From: a virus
Length of the DNA: 64,000 nt
Virus record (IMG/VR): IMGVR_UViG_3300049893_001613
Location: 1 to 64,000 of that record
Direction: 5' to 3' (one strand)
The notes beneath the pieces are model-generated. The model was not told the DNA's origin, ran no database searches, and worked only from the letters and a program-made list of their open reading frames with translations. Below, in pieces: positions 14,312 to 17,451 of this stretch. The first letter of the stretch is position 1. The number at the start of each line of letters is the position of its first letter. Position numbers and translations under genes: made by a program.

Positions 14312-14767
14312 ATGAAAACAAATATAGAAATCACTAAGTTCAGGTTTCCTGTATTTAAGTCTTACATATCCGTAGTAGTCTCAAACAACATTCCCAATGC
14401 CATTGATTTCATGGAGGATAAGATGCCCCATAAGATCCATGACCCGGATACAAAGAAGTTTACCCGGGCTTACATGTATGCCTATGAGGATGAACTGAAC
14501 AAAAGGAAGTACTTGCTATTCCTCAGACCTTCAGCCAAGCCTGGGGAGATAGCCCACGAAGTTAAACACCTGATTAACATCATGTTCAAGTGGCATGGAT
14601 ACCGGTTAAGCATCGATAACGATGAGCTGGAGTGCTACTACCTGGAAGATATCGTGGACCGCGTGCATTCTGCTATCCTCCGCTACAAGAAAAAATACAG
14701 TAAGCCCAAAAAAATAATCAGTAAAAAGCTTGACATTCCGGAAGAAACACCTATATTTGCACCATGA
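14312..14767 (+). CDS. Putative zincin-like metallopeptidase
   Basis: IAHEVKH (HExxH) with downstream NDELECY. Confidence 0.7.
   Translation: MKTNIEITKFRFPVFKSYISVVVSNNIPNAIDFMEDKMPHKIHDPDTKKFTRAYMYAYEDELNKRKYLLFLRPSAKPGEIAHEVKHLINIMFKWHGYRLSIDNDELECYYLEDIVDRVHSAILRYKKKYSKPKKIISKKLDIPEETPIFAP
14730..14759 (+). promoter_or_regulatory. Sigma-A-type promoter of tRNA block 1
   Basis: TTGA-N18-TATATTTG; predicted start near 14764. Confidence 0.75.
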
Positions 14768-14853
14768 TAACATTAACACTATCCCCCTTATCGCAGCAGC
14801 GCTATCTCAGTCATACTGGGAAAGAGGGGAGTACTGTGTTTAAAGATAATTAA
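14764..14853 (+). CDS. Leader peptide 1 (29 aa) of putative tRNA attenuator
   Basis: MITLTLSPLSQQRYLSHTGKEGSTVFKDN; codons 6-17 use only L,S,P,Q,R,Y,H, the amino acids of the nine downstream tRNAs. Confidence 0.8.
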   Translation: MITLTLSPLSQQRYLSHTGKEGSTVFKDN

Positions 14854-14889
14854 AGCCTTGTCAGGTTAATTTTTAAGTTAAACGTAAAG

Positions 14890-14915
14890 ACCCCTCCTAA
14901 ACCGAGGGGTTTTTT
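14890..14915 (+). terminator. Attenuator terminator 1
   Basis: ACCCCTC/GAGGGGT plus T run just before tRNA-Pro; 5' arm can pair alternatively with GAGGGG at 14824-14829. Confidence 0.85.
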
Positions 14916-14920
14916 ATTTT

Positions 14921-14993
14921 CTGGGTATATATCAATTGGTAGATTTCGTGCTTTGGGAGCATGAGGCTGGAGGTTCAAGTCCTTCTATCCAGA
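14921..14993 (+). tRNA. tRNA-Pro(TGG)
   Basis: Cloverleaf; loop TTTGGGA; T loop TTCAAGT. Confidence 0.9.
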
Positions 14994-14995
14994 CT

Positions 14996-15067
14996 GTCAA
15001 CATGGTGTAATGGTTAGCACCTAAGATTTTGGCTCTTAGAGTTAGGGTTCGAGTCCCTGTGTTGATA
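14996..15067 (+). tRNA. tRNA-Gln(TTG)
   Basis: Cloverleaf; loop TTTTGGC; TTCGAGT. Confidence 0.9.
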
Positions 15068-15069
15068 CT

Positions 15070-15143
15070 GTGTCTGTAGCTTAATGGCAGAGTCAAGGGT
15101 TGTGGTCCCTTTCGTGACGGTTCGACTCCGTTCAGACACCCCA
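15070..15143 (+). tRNA. tRNA-His(GTG)
   Basis: Cloverleaf; loop TTGTGGT; C73 plus encoded CCA. Confidence 0.9.
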
Positions 15144-15144
15144 T

Positions 15145-15216
15145 CTTCCTTTCGTTTAACTGGAAGGACGCAGCGCTACGAACGCTGTAATCCGGGTTCG
15201 AATCCTGGAGGGAAGA
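15145..15216 (+). tRNA. tRNA-Arg(ACG)
   Basis: Cloverleaf; loop CTACGAA. Confidence 0.92.
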
Positions 15217-15223
15217 CTTTAAT

Positions 15224-15299
15224 GCCCTTGTGGTCAAATTGGAAAAGGCGCCTGACTTAGGATCAGGAGATTTTGCAGGTTCGAAGCCTGCCAGGGGTA
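15224..15299 (+). tRNA. tRNA-Leu(TAG), short variable region
   Basis: Cloverleaf; loop CTTAGGA. Confidence 0.9.
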
Positions 15300-15303
15300 C
15301 AAT

Positions 15304-15376
15304 GCCGTCATGATGGAATGGAATACGTGTCAGACTTAAAATCTGAATTTTGCTGGTTCGAGTCCAGCTGGCGGTA
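15304..15376 (+). tRNA. tRNA-Leu(TAA), short variable region
   Basis: Cloverleaf; loop CTTAAAA. Confidence 0.9.
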
Positions 15377-15382
15377 CAATAC

Positions 15383-15467
15383 GGATGGAGTCCGGCATGG
15401 ACGAGGAAACGGTCTTGAAAACCGCTGGCCCTAACACGGTTCGTGAGTTCGATTCTCACTCCCTCCG
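15383..15467 (+). tRNA. tRNA-Ser(TGA)
   Basis: Loop CTTGAAA, long variable arm, G73. Confidence 0.9.
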
Positions 15468-15473
15468 CTAAAC

Positions 15474-15558
15474 AGAGAGTTAACCTACCAGGGTAGGCAA
15501 GCACTGCTAACGCTTTGGCTCGGGGTATCCGGGTGTGGGTCGCGACCACAGCTCTCTG
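15474..15558 (+). tRNA. tRNA-Ser(GCT), atypical T loop
   Basis: Acceptor AGAGAGT/GCTCTCT, loop CTGCTAA, long variable arm, G73; T loop GTCGCGA. Confidence 0.75.
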
Positions 15559-15563
15559 CATAT

Positions 15564-15635
15564 GCTTCAACACCCAGGGCAGGTGGGACGGTCTGTAAAA
15601 CCGAACCCCATGTAGTTCGAGTCTACTCTGAGGCA
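15564..15635 (+). tRNA. tRNA-Tyr(GTA), atypical
   Basis: CGGT-CTGTAAA-ACCG; GTAG-TTCGAGT-CTAC; short variable region. Confidence 0.75.
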
Positions 15636-15658
15636 CAAAAAATAAAGTTGTAAAAAGA

Positions 15659-15690
15659 TTTGGAAGTTTCAACTATCCTCCTCATCTTTG
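15659..15690 (+). promoter_or_regulatory. Sigma-A-type promoter of tRNA blocks 2/3
   Basis: TTTG-N20-CATCTTTG. Confidence 0.65.
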
Positions 15691-15697
15691 TATCCCT

Positions 15698-15775
15698 ATG
15701 AAGAAAGTATTAAAATCTGAAGAACAAGAGGCAGAAGAGCAATATGCTCCTGTCATCTATTTGGTTAGGATCTAA
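15698..15775 (+). CDS. Glu-rich leader peptide (25 aa) overlapping tRNA-Glu
   Basis: MKKVLKSEEQEAEEQYAPVIYLVRI; 5 Glu in 7 codons just before tRNA-Glu; stop lies inside the tRNA. Confidence 0.65.
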   Translation: MKKVLKSEEQEAEEQYAPVIYLVRI

Positions 15776-15818
15776 CACTTTCAATGTTAAAAAACGAGTT
15801 CGAATCTCGTCAGGAGTA
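15746..15818 (+). tRNA. tRNA-Glu(TTC)
   Basis: Cloverleaf; loop CTTTCAA; TTCGAAT. Confidence 0.9.
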
Positions 15819-15831
15819 CTAAAATTTAAAA

Positions 15832-15915
15832 ATGATGAAAAATTGGTTTAATATAGCGAATACGGTCATTACCATGAGAGATTGTGGCAAGGCTGTGTTA
15901 TATTGGGACCTGTAA
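15832..15915 (+). CDS. Leader peptide 3 (27 aa) of putative tRNA attenuator
   Basis: MMKNWFNIANTVITMRDCGKAVLYWDL after an A-rich leader; first 22 codons use exactly the 13 amino acids of the downstream tRNAs. Confidence 0.85.
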   Translation: MMKNWFNIANTVITMRDCGKAVLYWDL

Positions 15916-15941
15916 GATAGTTTGTATTATGTTTTCTGCAA

Positions 15942-15967
15942 AGGTCCCGTCACAAGCGGGACTTTTT
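15942..15967 (+). terminator. Attenuator terminator 3
   Basis: GTCCCG/CGGGAC plus TTTTT just before tRNA-Ala; AGGTCCC can pair alternatively with GGGACCT at 15905-15911. Confidence 0.85.
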
Positions 15968-15972
15968 CATTT

Positions 15973-16044
15973 GGGGCTAGAGACCAAGGCTGGCTGTTGT
16001 CCTTTGCAAGGATGACGTGGTGGGTTCGATTTCCACTTGCTCCA
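15973..16044 (+). tRNA. tRNA-Ala(TGC)
   Basis: GGGGCTA acceptor with G3:U70; loop TTTGCAA. Confidence 0.85.
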
Positions 16045-16048
16045 CTAT

Positions 16049-16121
16049 AGTTCTGAGGTCAAACGGTTAAGATGTATCACTGTCTATGATTACGGAGCGG
16101 GTTCAACTCCCGTCAGAACTG
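16049..16121 (+). tRNA. tRNA-Asp(GTC)
   Basis: Loop CTGTCTA; G73. Confidence 0.85.
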
Positions 16122-16130
16122 CAAACAAAA

Positions 16131-16203
16131 GGACTGGTAGCTCAGCGGCAGTAGCAAGCGGTTGTTAACCACTAGGTCGTAGGTTCGATCCCTACCTGGT
16201 CCT
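16131..16203 (+). tRNA. tRNA-Asn(GTT)
   Basis: Loop TTGTTAA; TTCGATC. Confidence 0.88.
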
Positions 16204-16208
16204 CACAT

Positions 16209-16330
16209 GGAGAATTCCCAGAGCACGGTGTGAAAAGCCGGAACGCTGGGGGATATAAATCCTTCCCTGTTAAGGGAAGTAACAGCAAGGGTTAAGAGAA
16301 ATCTTCTCCCGCTTTTTAAATTCTCCGCCA
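16209..16330 (+). ncRNA. Unclassified structured RNA with acceptor-like stem and GCCA end
   Basis: GGAGAATT/AATTCTCC-GCCA enclosing three hairpins; no T loop. Confidence 0.6.
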
Positions 16331-16401
16331 CACGTCCCGGGCTAGGGTAGCCAAGCGGTCTCCAAAACCGCAGGACAAGGTTCGATTCCTTGGGAGCGTG
16401 C
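16331..16401 (+). tRNA. tRNA-Trp(CCA)
   Basis: GCGGT-CTCCAAA-ACCGC; TTCGATT; irregular acceptor stem. Confidence 0.82.
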
Positions 16402-16405
16402 TTAT

Positions 16406-16478
16406 TCCGGTGAAGCTCATGTGGAAGAGCTACAGTTTTGTAAACTGAGGGCTGTCGGTTCGAACCCGTCCTCCGGAT
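16406..16478 (+). tRNA. tRNA-Thr(TGT)
   Basis: Loop TTTGTAA; TTCGAAC. Confidence 0.88.
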
Positions 16479-16514
16479 CATGTTAAGATTAAGACATAGG
16501 TCATTCTAAAATAA

Positions 16515-16585
16515 GCTCTTGTAGTTTAATGGAAAAACCTTTGTCTTCTAAACAAAAGATTCCGGTTCGAATCCGGGCAGGAGTT
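16515..16585 (+). tRNA. tRNA-Arg(TCT)
   Basis: TTTGT-CTTCTAA-ACAAA; TTCGAAT. Confidence 0.9.
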
Positions 16586-16588
16586 CAT

Positions 16589-16660
16589 CGACCCTTGGCG
16601 CAATGGTGGCGCAACTGGCTCATAACCAGCAGGACACTGGATCAGTACCAGTAGGGTCAA
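16589..16660 (+). tRNA. tRNA(CAT), Met/fMet/Ile2 identity unresolved
   Basis: Loop CTCATAA; C1xA72 mismatch; atypical T loop ATCAGTA. Confidence 0.8.
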
Positions 16661-16681
16661 CTAATTTAAAACCAATGTACA

Positions 16682-16795
16682 ATGGATGAGCAAGAATACG
16701 AATGGGCTAATGTTGAAAGGCCGGTAAAAGAAGAAGCTGAGGAACCAAAAACCTGCAGCTTAGAAGATGGTGAATGTTTAAGTTGTGGATCATGA
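16682..16795 (+). CDS. 37-aa acidic peptide ending CxxCGS
   Basis: MDEQEYEWANVERPVKEEAEEPKTCSLEDGECLSCGS; fills the gap between two tRNAs. Confidence 0.7.
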   Translation: MDEQEYEWANVERPVKEEAEEPKTCSLEDGECLSCGS

Positions 16796-16827
16796 TAACA
16801 GATAAGAAAGACTACGATAAGCTTAAT

Positions 16828-16899
16828 GCTGTCGTAGCTCCAATGTAGAGCTTCCGGCTTTTAACCGGAAGGTTGTGGGTTCAAGTCCCACCGGCAGTA
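16828..16899 (+). tRNA. tRNA-Lys(TTT)
   Basis: TCCGG-CTTTTAA-CCGGA. Confidence 0.92.
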
Positions 16900-16904
16900 C
16901 AGAT

Positions 16905-16978
16905 GTTGAAGTAATTCAAGTGGTACAGAACCCTCCCTGATAAGGAGGTATGTGGTGGTTCAAATCCATCCTTCAACA
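16905..16978 (+). tRNA. tRNA-Ile(GAT)
   Basis: CCTCC-CTGATAA-GGAGG. Confidence 0.92.
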
Positions 16979-16983
16979 CACAT

Positions 16984-17056
16984 CGGGGTGAGAATTGGTA
17001 TTCCATCGGGTCTCATAAGCCTGACTTCGTGGGTTCGTTTCCCACCGCCCCAACCA
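16984..17056 (+). tRNA. tRNA(CAT), initiator-like
   Basis: C1xA72, loop CTCATAA, encoded CCA. Confidence 0.82.
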
Positions 17057-17057
17057 T

Positions 17058-17130
17058 GGAGACATAACATAGATGGTCTATGTATCCGCCTGAAGAGCGG
17101 AAGATCCTGGATCGTTACCAGGTGGCTCCA
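17058..17130 (+). tRNA. tRNA-Phe(GAA)
   Basis: TCCGC-CTGAAGA-GCGGA; atypical T loop ATCGTTA. Confidence 0.82.
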
Positions 17131-17135
17131 CATAT

Positions 17136-17193
17136 CTCACCCTAAGAGGCTTTGCAGACTGGTACCGGAAAGCAGTAGTGTCGGGTGAGTCCA
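17136..17193 (+). ncRNA. 58-nt mini RNA with 7-bp acceptor stem and UCCA end
   Basis: CTCACCC/GGGTGAG-T-CCA; spaced like a tRNA gene; no D or T arm. Confidence 0.5.
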
Positions 17194-17194
17194 T

Positions 17195-17266
17195 GCTCCT
17201 TTAGTTCACCGGAAGAACGCTTGGTTTACATCCAAGATGCAGGTGGTTCAATTCCATCAGGGAGTA
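17195..17266 (+). tRNA. tRNA-Val(TAC)
   Basis: CTTGG-TTTACAT-CCAAG. Confidence 0.92.
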
Positions 17267-17307
17267 CAGGTAGTTTTGGAGGTTCTCGTGTAAAAAACCT
17301 TCTTCAT

Positions 17308-17383
17308 GCAGTAATAGCTCCCAATGTAGAGCGGTGGTCTTCCAAACCTCAGGCTGTGAGTTCAAGTCTCACTTACTGCACCA
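17308..17383 (+). tRNA. tRNA-Gly(TCC)
   Basis: Loop CTTCCAA; encoded CCA. Confidence 0.9.
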
Positions 17384-17384
17384 T

Positions 17385-17451
17385 GACCATGACGGCCGTA
17401 GAACTCTGTCTGCAAAACAGAGAAACGTGGGTTGAACTCCCACCTTGGTCT
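17385..17451 (+). tRNA. tRNA-Cys(GCA), reduced D arm
   Basis: TCTGT-CTGCAAA-ACAGA; U73; T loop TTGAACT. Confidence 0.75.

Follow-up and report, generated by a model that had tools for sequence, protein, structure and literature searches.

Candidate leader-peptide attenuator with thirteen amino acid specificities before a block of fourteen tRNA genes in a crAss-like phage

The window analysed here, 64,000 nucleotides (nt) long, is the first 64 kb of the 96,443-bp IMG/VR virus record IMGVR_UViG_3300049893_001613. A transfer RNA (tRNA) array occupies positions 14921–17450 of its plus strand, where gene direction turns from leftward to rightward; ARAGORN with relaxed thresholds, together with Rfam, gave 24 tRNAs for all 20 amino acids, arranged in three blocks. 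Between the second and third blocks lies a short open reading frame (ORF), which we call leader 3 (15832–15915, + strand), with 27 codons followed by TAA and the translation MMKNWFNIANTVITMRDCGKAVLYWDL. It is followed by a hairpin with a run of T residues and then by the 14 tRNA genes of block 3 (15972–17450, + strand). We describe leader 3 here as a candidate transcription attenuator of these 14 genes.

Block 3 consists of the tRNAs for Ala, Asp, Asn, Trp, Thr, Arg(tct), Met(cat), Lys, Ile(gat), Met(cat), Phe, Val, Gly and Cys, of which 11 were called by ARAGORN at default settings, Asp by Rfam, and Ala and Cys at relaxed ARAGORN thresholds only. Upstream of leader 3 are block 1 (Pro, Gln, His, Arg(acg), Leu(tag), Leu(taa), Ser(tga), Ser(gct) and Tyr) and block 2, a single tRNA-Glu(ttc) at 15746–15819 (+ strand) called by both ARAGORN and Rfam. 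The first 22 codons of leader 3 specify A, D, N, W, T, R (AGA), M, K, I (ATA and ATT), F, V, G and C, while P, Q, H, L, S, Y and E are all missing from them. These 13 amino acids are exactly those of the 14 downstream tRNAs, and the amino acids left out are exactly those of the ten upstream tRNAs, with Arg split by codon. All 13 are reached by codon 20. When all 127,870 22-codon stretches in the six frames of the window were compared, three were restricted to the 13-letter set and only two also held all 13, namely leader 3 and its own one-codon shift; given the codon usage of the phage itself, about 5e-5 x 6e-3 would be expected per 22-codon stretch. None of the 891 ORFs of the window has a comparable N-terminal run. 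The match between leader 3 and the downstream tRNAs is not due to chance, since only this ORF among the 127,870 stretches has the property. The preliminary description of this DNA had pointed out that 22 codons sample 13 amino acids, and this was confirmed; the match to the 14 downstream tRNAs is both exact and unique.

Four segments that could pair alternatively were identified in and behind leader 3, all on the plus strand. Segment 1 (15845–15857), made up of Trp-Phe-Asn-Ile codons, is the 5' strand of a hairpin within the leader. Segment 2 (15898–15911) is the 3' strand of that hairpin, and its core GGGACCT (15905–15911), 2–8 nt before the stop codon, is the antiterminator strand. Segment 3 (15942–15950), the 5' arm of the terminator, has segment 2 and segment 4 as alternative partners; segment 4 (15956–15972) comprises the 3' arm (15956–15963) and the U-tract TTTTTCATTT, which overlaps the end of the arm. 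The sequence AGGTCCC at 15942–15948 is the exact reverse complement, over 7 nt, of GGGACCT, and the complementarity proposed earlier therefore stands at both positions. The terminator stem, 15943–15950 paired with 15956–15963, has 8 bp, is GC-rich (−12.9 kcal/mol) and closes on the loop CACAA, with TTTTT at 15963–15967. Leader 3 ends 57 nt before tRNA-Ala, and the T-run adjoins that gene. This leaves no room for a promoter, so block 3 must be transcribed through the terminator.

Homologues of leader 3 were found in seven other IMG/VR records: L006, L026 and L027 (identical to each other), L169, L170, L171 and L176. Since the L176 peptide equals that of L169, six distinct leaders were compared, those of the window, L006, L026, L169, L170 and L171. 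Among the nearest phages, from IMG/VR and Joint Genome Institute (JGI) contigs, with terminases 72–77% identical to that of the window, the array is present in L006 and L026 and a six-tRNA version in L038; several have no tRNA array. Terminases 70–81% identical also occur on about 30 long Logan contigs, which lie outside the sample compared here. The phage is present at freshwater-sediment or pond sites, and an 85-kb contig from soil has roughly 90% identity. The records L169, L170, L171 and L176 (120–125 kb) were recovered by motif scans of IMG/VR, and their terminases are 26–28% identical to that of the window. These are at least four in number, being the records kept after filtering a loose pattern scan, whose matches were mostly chance, together with a stricter scan. 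The predicted cassette of leaders and tRNAs occurs in two distantly related phage groups, because the terminases of the two are only 26–28% identical. Proteins flanking the homologous leaders are 30–75% identical. Every homologue has an ATG and 27–28 codons at the same place, and the ORF frame is the sole frame open in all six leaders, the other two frames carrying one to four stops each. The peptides start with M-K-(R/K)-N-W-F-N and contain D-C-G-(K/R), with the variable middles IANTVITMR, RAITMFAT, IIITTFAR, IIFTMFATR, NAAAFTTT and IMFTSFTTR.

The hairpin and T-run are kept in all homologues, with free energies of −10.3 (L026) and −14.5 kcal/mol (L006) for the two that were computed. Segment 2 and the terminator 5' arm read GGGACCT / AGGTCCC in the window, GGAGCC / GGCTCC in L006, GGGAACC / GGTTCC in L026, TGGAGCC / GGCTCC in L169, TTGGAAC / GTTCCAA in L170 and TGGAGCC / GGCTCCA in L171, and the terminator 3' arm varies in step with segments 2 and 3 in each genome. 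Both the 2:3 and the 3:4 pairing are thereby preserved by compensatory changes across the six distinct leaders (the window and five other arm sequences). Between the window and L006, for example, two adjacent pairs differ in both partners, one going from G-C to A-T and the other from A-T to G-C, in 2:3 and 3:4 alike. The cognate 2:3 duplexes have energies of −10 to −15.3 kcal/mol, lie within the best 0.5% of shuffled tails and are the best, or tied for best, in each row of a cross-genome matrix. This support comes from the duplex energies and the arm sequences; the alignment from stop codon to terminator is out of register and was not used for pair counts. In the three leaders so folded (window, L006 and L026), nascent RNA ending before the 3' arm folds into 2:3.

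Leader 3 folded alone gave one long hairpin in all six leaders, in which segment 2 pairs with GGUUU of the Trp-Phe codons. The RNAalifold consensus has 32 pairs, with 92% of cells paired as against 41–52% in slid controls; seven pairs show changes on both sides, and the covariation score was reached by none of 500 shuffles. The Leu-Tyr codons near the end of leader 3 form part of the 3' strand of this hairpin. In all six leaders segment 2 starts at codon 25 or 26, falls within 2–12 nt before the stop and ends 2–6 nt before it. On the assumption, made for this geometry, that a paused ribosome covers about 14 nt past the first base of the A-site codon, segment 2 stays free up to a pause at codon 20 or 21. 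A pause beyond this point would already cover segment 2, which restricts sensing to the codons from 1 to 20 or 21; in the window the sensing codons are 1–20. Amino acids outside the 13-letter set (Leu, Tyr, Ser and Gln) occur only after the sensing codons, a rule that holds in 122 of 123 sensing codons.

The content of the leader also follows the content of the block. The leaders before full blocks (window, L006, L026 and L169) have all 13 amino acids in their sensing codons; the L176 block is also full. The L170 block carries only the tRNAs for Ala, Gly, Asp, Asn, Trp, Thr, Arg(tct), Phe and Cys, without those for Ile, Val, Lys and Met, and an Rfam scan of the whole L170 record found no further tRNAs. 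The leader of L170 has no Ile, Val or internal Met codon and instead has four Asn, three Ala and three Thr codons. L171 has no tRNA-Val anywhere in its record, where the sole tRNA outside the array is Met(cat), and its leader has no Val codon. Taking the six leaders together, the sensing codons include 73 of the 73 amino acids for which the block has a tRNA and lack three of the five for which it has none (Fisher p = 1.3e-4, a value that is indicative only, given the relatedness of the genomes).

Three proteins of the window, the terminase, the portal and the major head protein, match crAss-like families, and the closest named phages are crAss-like (terminase identity about 30%). The window is from a crAss-like phage, probably with a Bacteroidota host. 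Leaders 1 and 2, the short ORFs before blocks 1 and 2, are preceded in nearly all genomes by a −33 TTTG/TTGAC element and a −7 TAnnTTTG motif that ends 4–7 nt before the ATG; at leader 2 a motif like this is present in all genomes. Motifs of this type are the promoter of the primary sigma factor of the Bacteroidota (PMC7366714). Such promoters fit the crAss-like affiliation and imply transcription by the host polymerase; since the promoter ends so close to the ATG of leader 2, the mRNA would be leaderless or nearly so. No −33/−7 motif was found between tRNA-Glu and leader 3, whose ATG lies 13–16 nt 3' of tRNA-Glu in the window, L006, L026 and L171. With no promoter motif of its own and close behind tRNA-Glu, leader 3 would be fed from the leader 2 promoter, through tRNA-Glu. 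A sigma-70-like site at 15903–15930 (9/12) was discarded as a candidate internal promoter: relatives do not preserve its spacing, host promoters look Bacteroidota-type, and it would leave the 2:3 covariation unexplained.

The translation-initiation region of leader 3 (15820–15831, + strand) is A-rich and unpaired in the consensus fold, as are the start codon and the next 13 nt. There is an A at −3 in five of the six leaders; the 120-kb group also has A at −6, −12 and −13, as does the second ATG of the window. No Shine-Dalgarno sequence was found at any leader of the array. A-rich initiation regions are typical of Bacteroidota (PMC6847099), and the start of leader 3, A-rich without a Shine-Dalgarno sequence, fits this mode of initiation.

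The ORF, the three alternative pairings with their covariation, and a codon set that matches the tRNA set and varies along with it, all obtained from sequence and comparison, suggest that leader 3 is probably a ribosome-mediated transcription attenuator of the trpL/ilvL type, 13-valent and controlling the 14 phage tRNA genes. The predicted four-segment design of 1:2, 2:3 and 3:4 is the classical attenuator arrangement, and the conserved 1:2 hairpin makes this putative design more complete than the preliminary description had it. We infer translation of the ORF, termination of transcription at the hairpin and a coupling of transcription to translation in the host, which is probably one of the Bacteroidota; the physiological trigger given below is likewise a proposal. 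Host RNA polymerase would enter via tRNA-Glu and transcribe leader 3, and a ribosome would begin at its A-rich AUG without the help of a Shine-Dalgarno sequence. With all 13 aminoacyl-tRNAs plentiful, the ribosome would arrive at the stop and cover segment 2, the 3:4 terminator would fold and transcription would end at about 15963–15970, just 5' of tRNA-Ala. A ribosome slow on any of codons ~5 to 20 would hold 1:2 open and leave segment 2 bare to pair with segment 3, no terminator would form and the 14 tRNAs would be transcribed. If no ribosome were present, 1:2 would occupy segment 2 and the terminator would form, so that an untranslated leader should terminate.

It had been proposed previously that a ribosome at the stop masks the antiterminator and that any earlier stall gives read-through. 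The compensatory 2:3 and 3:4 changes, the placement of the stop and the co-variation of content all support such a mechanism. As to which stalls would count, the proposal is predicted to hold for codons 1 to 20 or 21 and to fail for later codons, at which segment 2 is already covered.

The quantity sensed would be decoding speed at the codons of those amino acids with tRNAs downstream. Because the sensor codons are those of the products' amino acids, the arrangement would give negative feedback, refilling tRNAs when the pool (host plus phage) is short. Extra tRNA is no help to a starved cell, and bacterial tRNA operons respond to starvation in the opposite direction. For both reasons the signal would most plausibly be a shortage of decoding-competent tRNA rather than amino-acid starvation. 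Any connection with defences that target tRNA is speculative.

Leaders 1 and 2 are predicted to obey the same logic for the other two blocks. Leader 1 (14764–14914) has its own segments 1:2:3:4 (CCCCCT / GAGGGG / CCCCTC / GAGGGG) followed by a T-run, and it gave a sub-threshold match to the Rfam His_leader family (25 bits against a gathering score of 49). Its core amino acids in the window, L026, L169 and L171 are Leu, Ser, Pro, Gln, Arg (always CGC), Tyr and His. L170, without Ser tRNAs, has fewer Ser codons in leader 1, and the L038 block of Pro, His, Leu, Asn, Leu and Tyr is preceded by a leader with the core H-L-L-N-P-N-Y-L-L-P. Arg is encoded in the leader 1 core as CGC in the five genomes with a leader for the Pro-Gln-His-Arg block (tRNA-Arg acg downstream) and in leader 3 as AGA or AGG only (tRNA-Arg tct downstream). 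Arg codons are divided between the leaders just as the two Arg tRNAs are divided between the blocks. Leader 2 (15698–15775) is Glu-rich, with four or five Glu codons in each of the six genomes; it enters tRNA-Glu and has its stop in the anticodon stem. A fourth short ORF (16792–16848; MITDKKDYDKLNAVVAPM) starts 36 nt before tRNA-Lys(ttt) and stops at tRNA position 19. Lys-rich ORFs entering tRNA-Lys also occur in L026 and L169, with variants in L006 and L171, and their design is like that of leader 2, without a terminator.

Several observations weigh against an attenuator. When the complete leader is folded at equilibrium with the footprint of a ribosome masked, the terminator wins at most stall positions, and such folds alone do not predict the switch; the antiterminator is favoured only in a kinetic, nascent-RNA view. 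The U-tract is weak in L006. The stretches AATTGGTTTAAT and GATTGTGG do not vary, synonymous sites included, so RNA structure accounts for part of the conservation, and the ratio of nonsynonymous to synonymous change (dN/dS) is uninformative on translation. The correspondence of content is also imperfect: the L170 leader has two Lys codons where the block has no tRNA-Lys, the L026 leader has no internal Met codon, and a Ser codon (TCA) at codon 12 of the L171 leader is the sole off-set residue in the 123 sensing codons. Most amino acids have only one to three codons in leader 3, and its response to any single tRNA should therefore be less sensitive than that of a classical leader, where codons occur in runs. 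C is the third base of several sensing codons (GGC, ACC, GTC and GCC) and the phage tRNAs of those boxes have U34, so a match at the codon level needs four-way wobble. Finally, gating is not obligatory. In L006 the leader 1 ORF is lost, with the hairpin and T-run before tRNA-Pro kept, and the arrays of L019, L039 and L010–L016 are without such leaders.

The structural conservation would also be expected if leader 3 were not translated, its frame being incidental, and served as an RNA switch or as a structured 5' leader of the precursor tRNA, with a protein, RNase P or RNase E, or polymerase as its reader. The covarying RNA structure is strong and spans the whole leader, its paired strands are invariant at the nucleotide level, and no Shine-Dalgarno sequence is present. 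We consider this explanation unlikely, because one frame only is open throughout the six leaders, the start is unpaired and A-rich like Bacteroidota initiation regions, the distance from stop codon to segment 2 is fixed, and the amino-acid statistics have no explanation at the RNA level. That leader 3 encodes a conserved small protein with its own function, lying before an ordinary, partly leaky terminator or a processing signal of tRNA-Ala and matching the tRNA set as a by-product, would agree with the canonical terminator and with the conservation of NWFN and DCGK at fixed positions in all leaders, as in a functional micropeptide. The residues so conserved, however, are the single-copy W, D, C and K, which a constraint on coverage alone would freeze. 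A small protein has no reason to be built from the full set of amino acids of the downstream tRNAs and from no others, or to lose Ile and Val codons alongside their tRNAs, and it leaves the co-variation of the last codons with the terminator arm unexplained. Searches of PHROG and Pfam found no family matching the leader peptides, and we regard a small protein as quite improbable.

Translation of leader 3 might instead act post-transcriptionally, on the folding, processing or decay of the precursor rather than on termination. Two other short ORFs of the cassette enter their tRNA without a terminator, and tRNA maturation may here be under the control of translation; leaders 2 and 4 (the Lys-rich ORF) may act by running into tRNA-Glu and tRNA-Lys. 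Leader 3, however, has its stop 57 nt short of tRNA-Ala, with a canonical hairpin and U-tract behind it, and a covarying alternative partner for the 5' arm of the hairpin is the signature of termination control, which leaves a post-transcriptional role with little probability. Short ORFs are common in AT-rich spacers, and one might by chance stand beside an ordinary terminator. Leader 3 is unique in the window, recurs in seven other records and co-varies with tRNA content, so the comparative data effectively refute chance, to which we assign almost no weight. A ribosome-mediated attenuator thus remains our preferred reading of leader 3.

Further features of the array were noted. The calls for tRNA-Gly (17308–17383) and tRNA-Cys (17380–17450) overlap by 4 nt. 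A 127-nt non-tRNA insert at 16205–16331, between tRNA-Asn and tRNA-Trp, has a closed multi-branch fold (−44.9 kcal/mol, z = −3.8), gave no Rfam match and is not at the same place in L006. An acidic 37-codon ORF with a Cys-rich end (16682–16795) lies between tRNA-Met and tRNA-Lys. In the preliminary description the ATA codon was taken as a hint that one CAT tRNA may serve as lysidine Ile2. The first pair of both CAT tRNAs (16589–16661 and 16984–17056), which may be initiator, elongator or Ile2 tRNAs, is a C1.A72 mismatch and gives no sign of Ile2; the former has an unusual T loop and the latter an encoded CCA end. An ATA codon is present in leader 3 of the window, L026, L169 and L171 and in neither L006 nor L170. 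At 2225–2313 of L169, just 3' of tRNA-Arg(tct), where other genomes have a CAT tRNA, there is a weak tRNA-like gene (24 bits) with the anticodon TAT, which would read ATA directly; it is not clearly homologous.

Other searches for relatives gave negative results. The upstream 151-amino-acid protein had no relative in IMG/VR, the relatives found with the phosphoesterase (L002–L004) and several of those found with the terminase have no tRNA array at this place, and a 32-nt tRNA-Leu pattern had no match in metagenome contigs. A tRNA-Glu pattern led to the arrays of unrelated phages L010–L016, without leader 3. The match of a first leader pattern in L008 was rejected as chance, since it lies inside a gene. 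At 1501–2768 of L039, from the phage of L038, tRNA-Arg(tct), tRNA-Met and tRNA-Thr lie directly 3' of protein genes without a leader, which indicates that gating is not universal within one genome. L019 has a different Glu-rich ORF, of 53 codons, directly 5' of its tRNA-Pro.

The finding touches on an open question, what leads large phages to carry tRNA genes and how these are put to use. If leader 3 works as proposed, the regulated product (tRNA) would be the molecule that the sensor (a translating ribosome) consumes, giving direct feedback on the tRNA pool; we know of no such feedback described for any tRNA operon. It would provide an on-demand phage answer to tRNA depletion, including depletion by tRNA-targeting host defences, and would mean that leader-peptide attenuation can be 13-valent and can work in a phylum whose initiation is not led by Shine-Dalgarno sequences. 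More tentatively, the three (perhaps four) leaders and 24 tRNAs could form one portable cassette that monitors the decoding of all 20 amino acids and re-supplies whichever tRNA group is short, for example after host tRNA shut-off or anticodon-nuclease cleavage; we hold this broader view to be possible rather than probable. Its presence in lineages with terminases 26–28% identical suggests that the putative cassette spreads as a unit. The rule that the amino-acid set of the leader equals the downstream tRNA set could be used to find such units in metagenomes and can be tested with reporters.

Our search of the full-text literature turned up no account of tRNA genes, or of phage tRNA arrays, under the control of a leader peptide. 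Over 15832–15972, no Rfam leader family (His_leader, Trp_leader, Thr_leader, Leu_leader and others) matched at E <= 1, no Pfam leader family matched leader 3, and the Rfam T-box model gave no match at gathering or E-value thresholds. Phage T4, mycobacteriophages and crAss-like phages share with this window the presence of tRNA arrays in large phages, and such arrays are thought to compensate for codon usage or for loss of host tRNAs. T-box riboswitches likewise couple the state of tRNA to a choice between terminator and antiterminator before translation-related genes. A T-box, however, binds one uncharged tRNA directly, via a specifier codon and the T-box bulge and without a ribosome, whereas leader 3 is an ORF with no T-box motif and 13 proposed specificities. 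The pheM leader of Escherichia coli pheST, which encodes phenylalanyl-tRNA synthetase, is also an attenuator of a component of the translation apparatus and responds to charged-tRNA supply, as proposed for leader 3; it differs in having a protein enzyme as its target, in sensing a single amino acid and in being part of a bacterial chromosome.

The closest likeness is to the enterobacterial leader-peptide attenuators, among them trpL, the ilvGMEDA leader, which senses Ile, Leu and Val, and thrL, which senses Thr and Ile. Shared with these are a short leader ORF (translated there and predicted to be so here), a 1:2 hairpin, a 2:3 antiterminator, a 3:4 intrinsic terminator, a stop placed for the terminating ribosome to block segment 2, and regulatory codons cognate to what the operon supplies. 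Leader 3 differs in that it precedes tRNA genes rather than genes for biosynthetic enzymes, represents 13 amino acids mostly by single codons rather than one to three in runs, and belongs to a phage of a probable Bacteroidota host without a Shine-Dalgarno sequence. If it is a 13-valent sensor, its valency is to our knowledge the highest for any attenuator. The proposed mechanism is of a known kind; what is new is the tRNA-gene target, the 13-fold valency and the setting in a phage and in the Bacteroidota.
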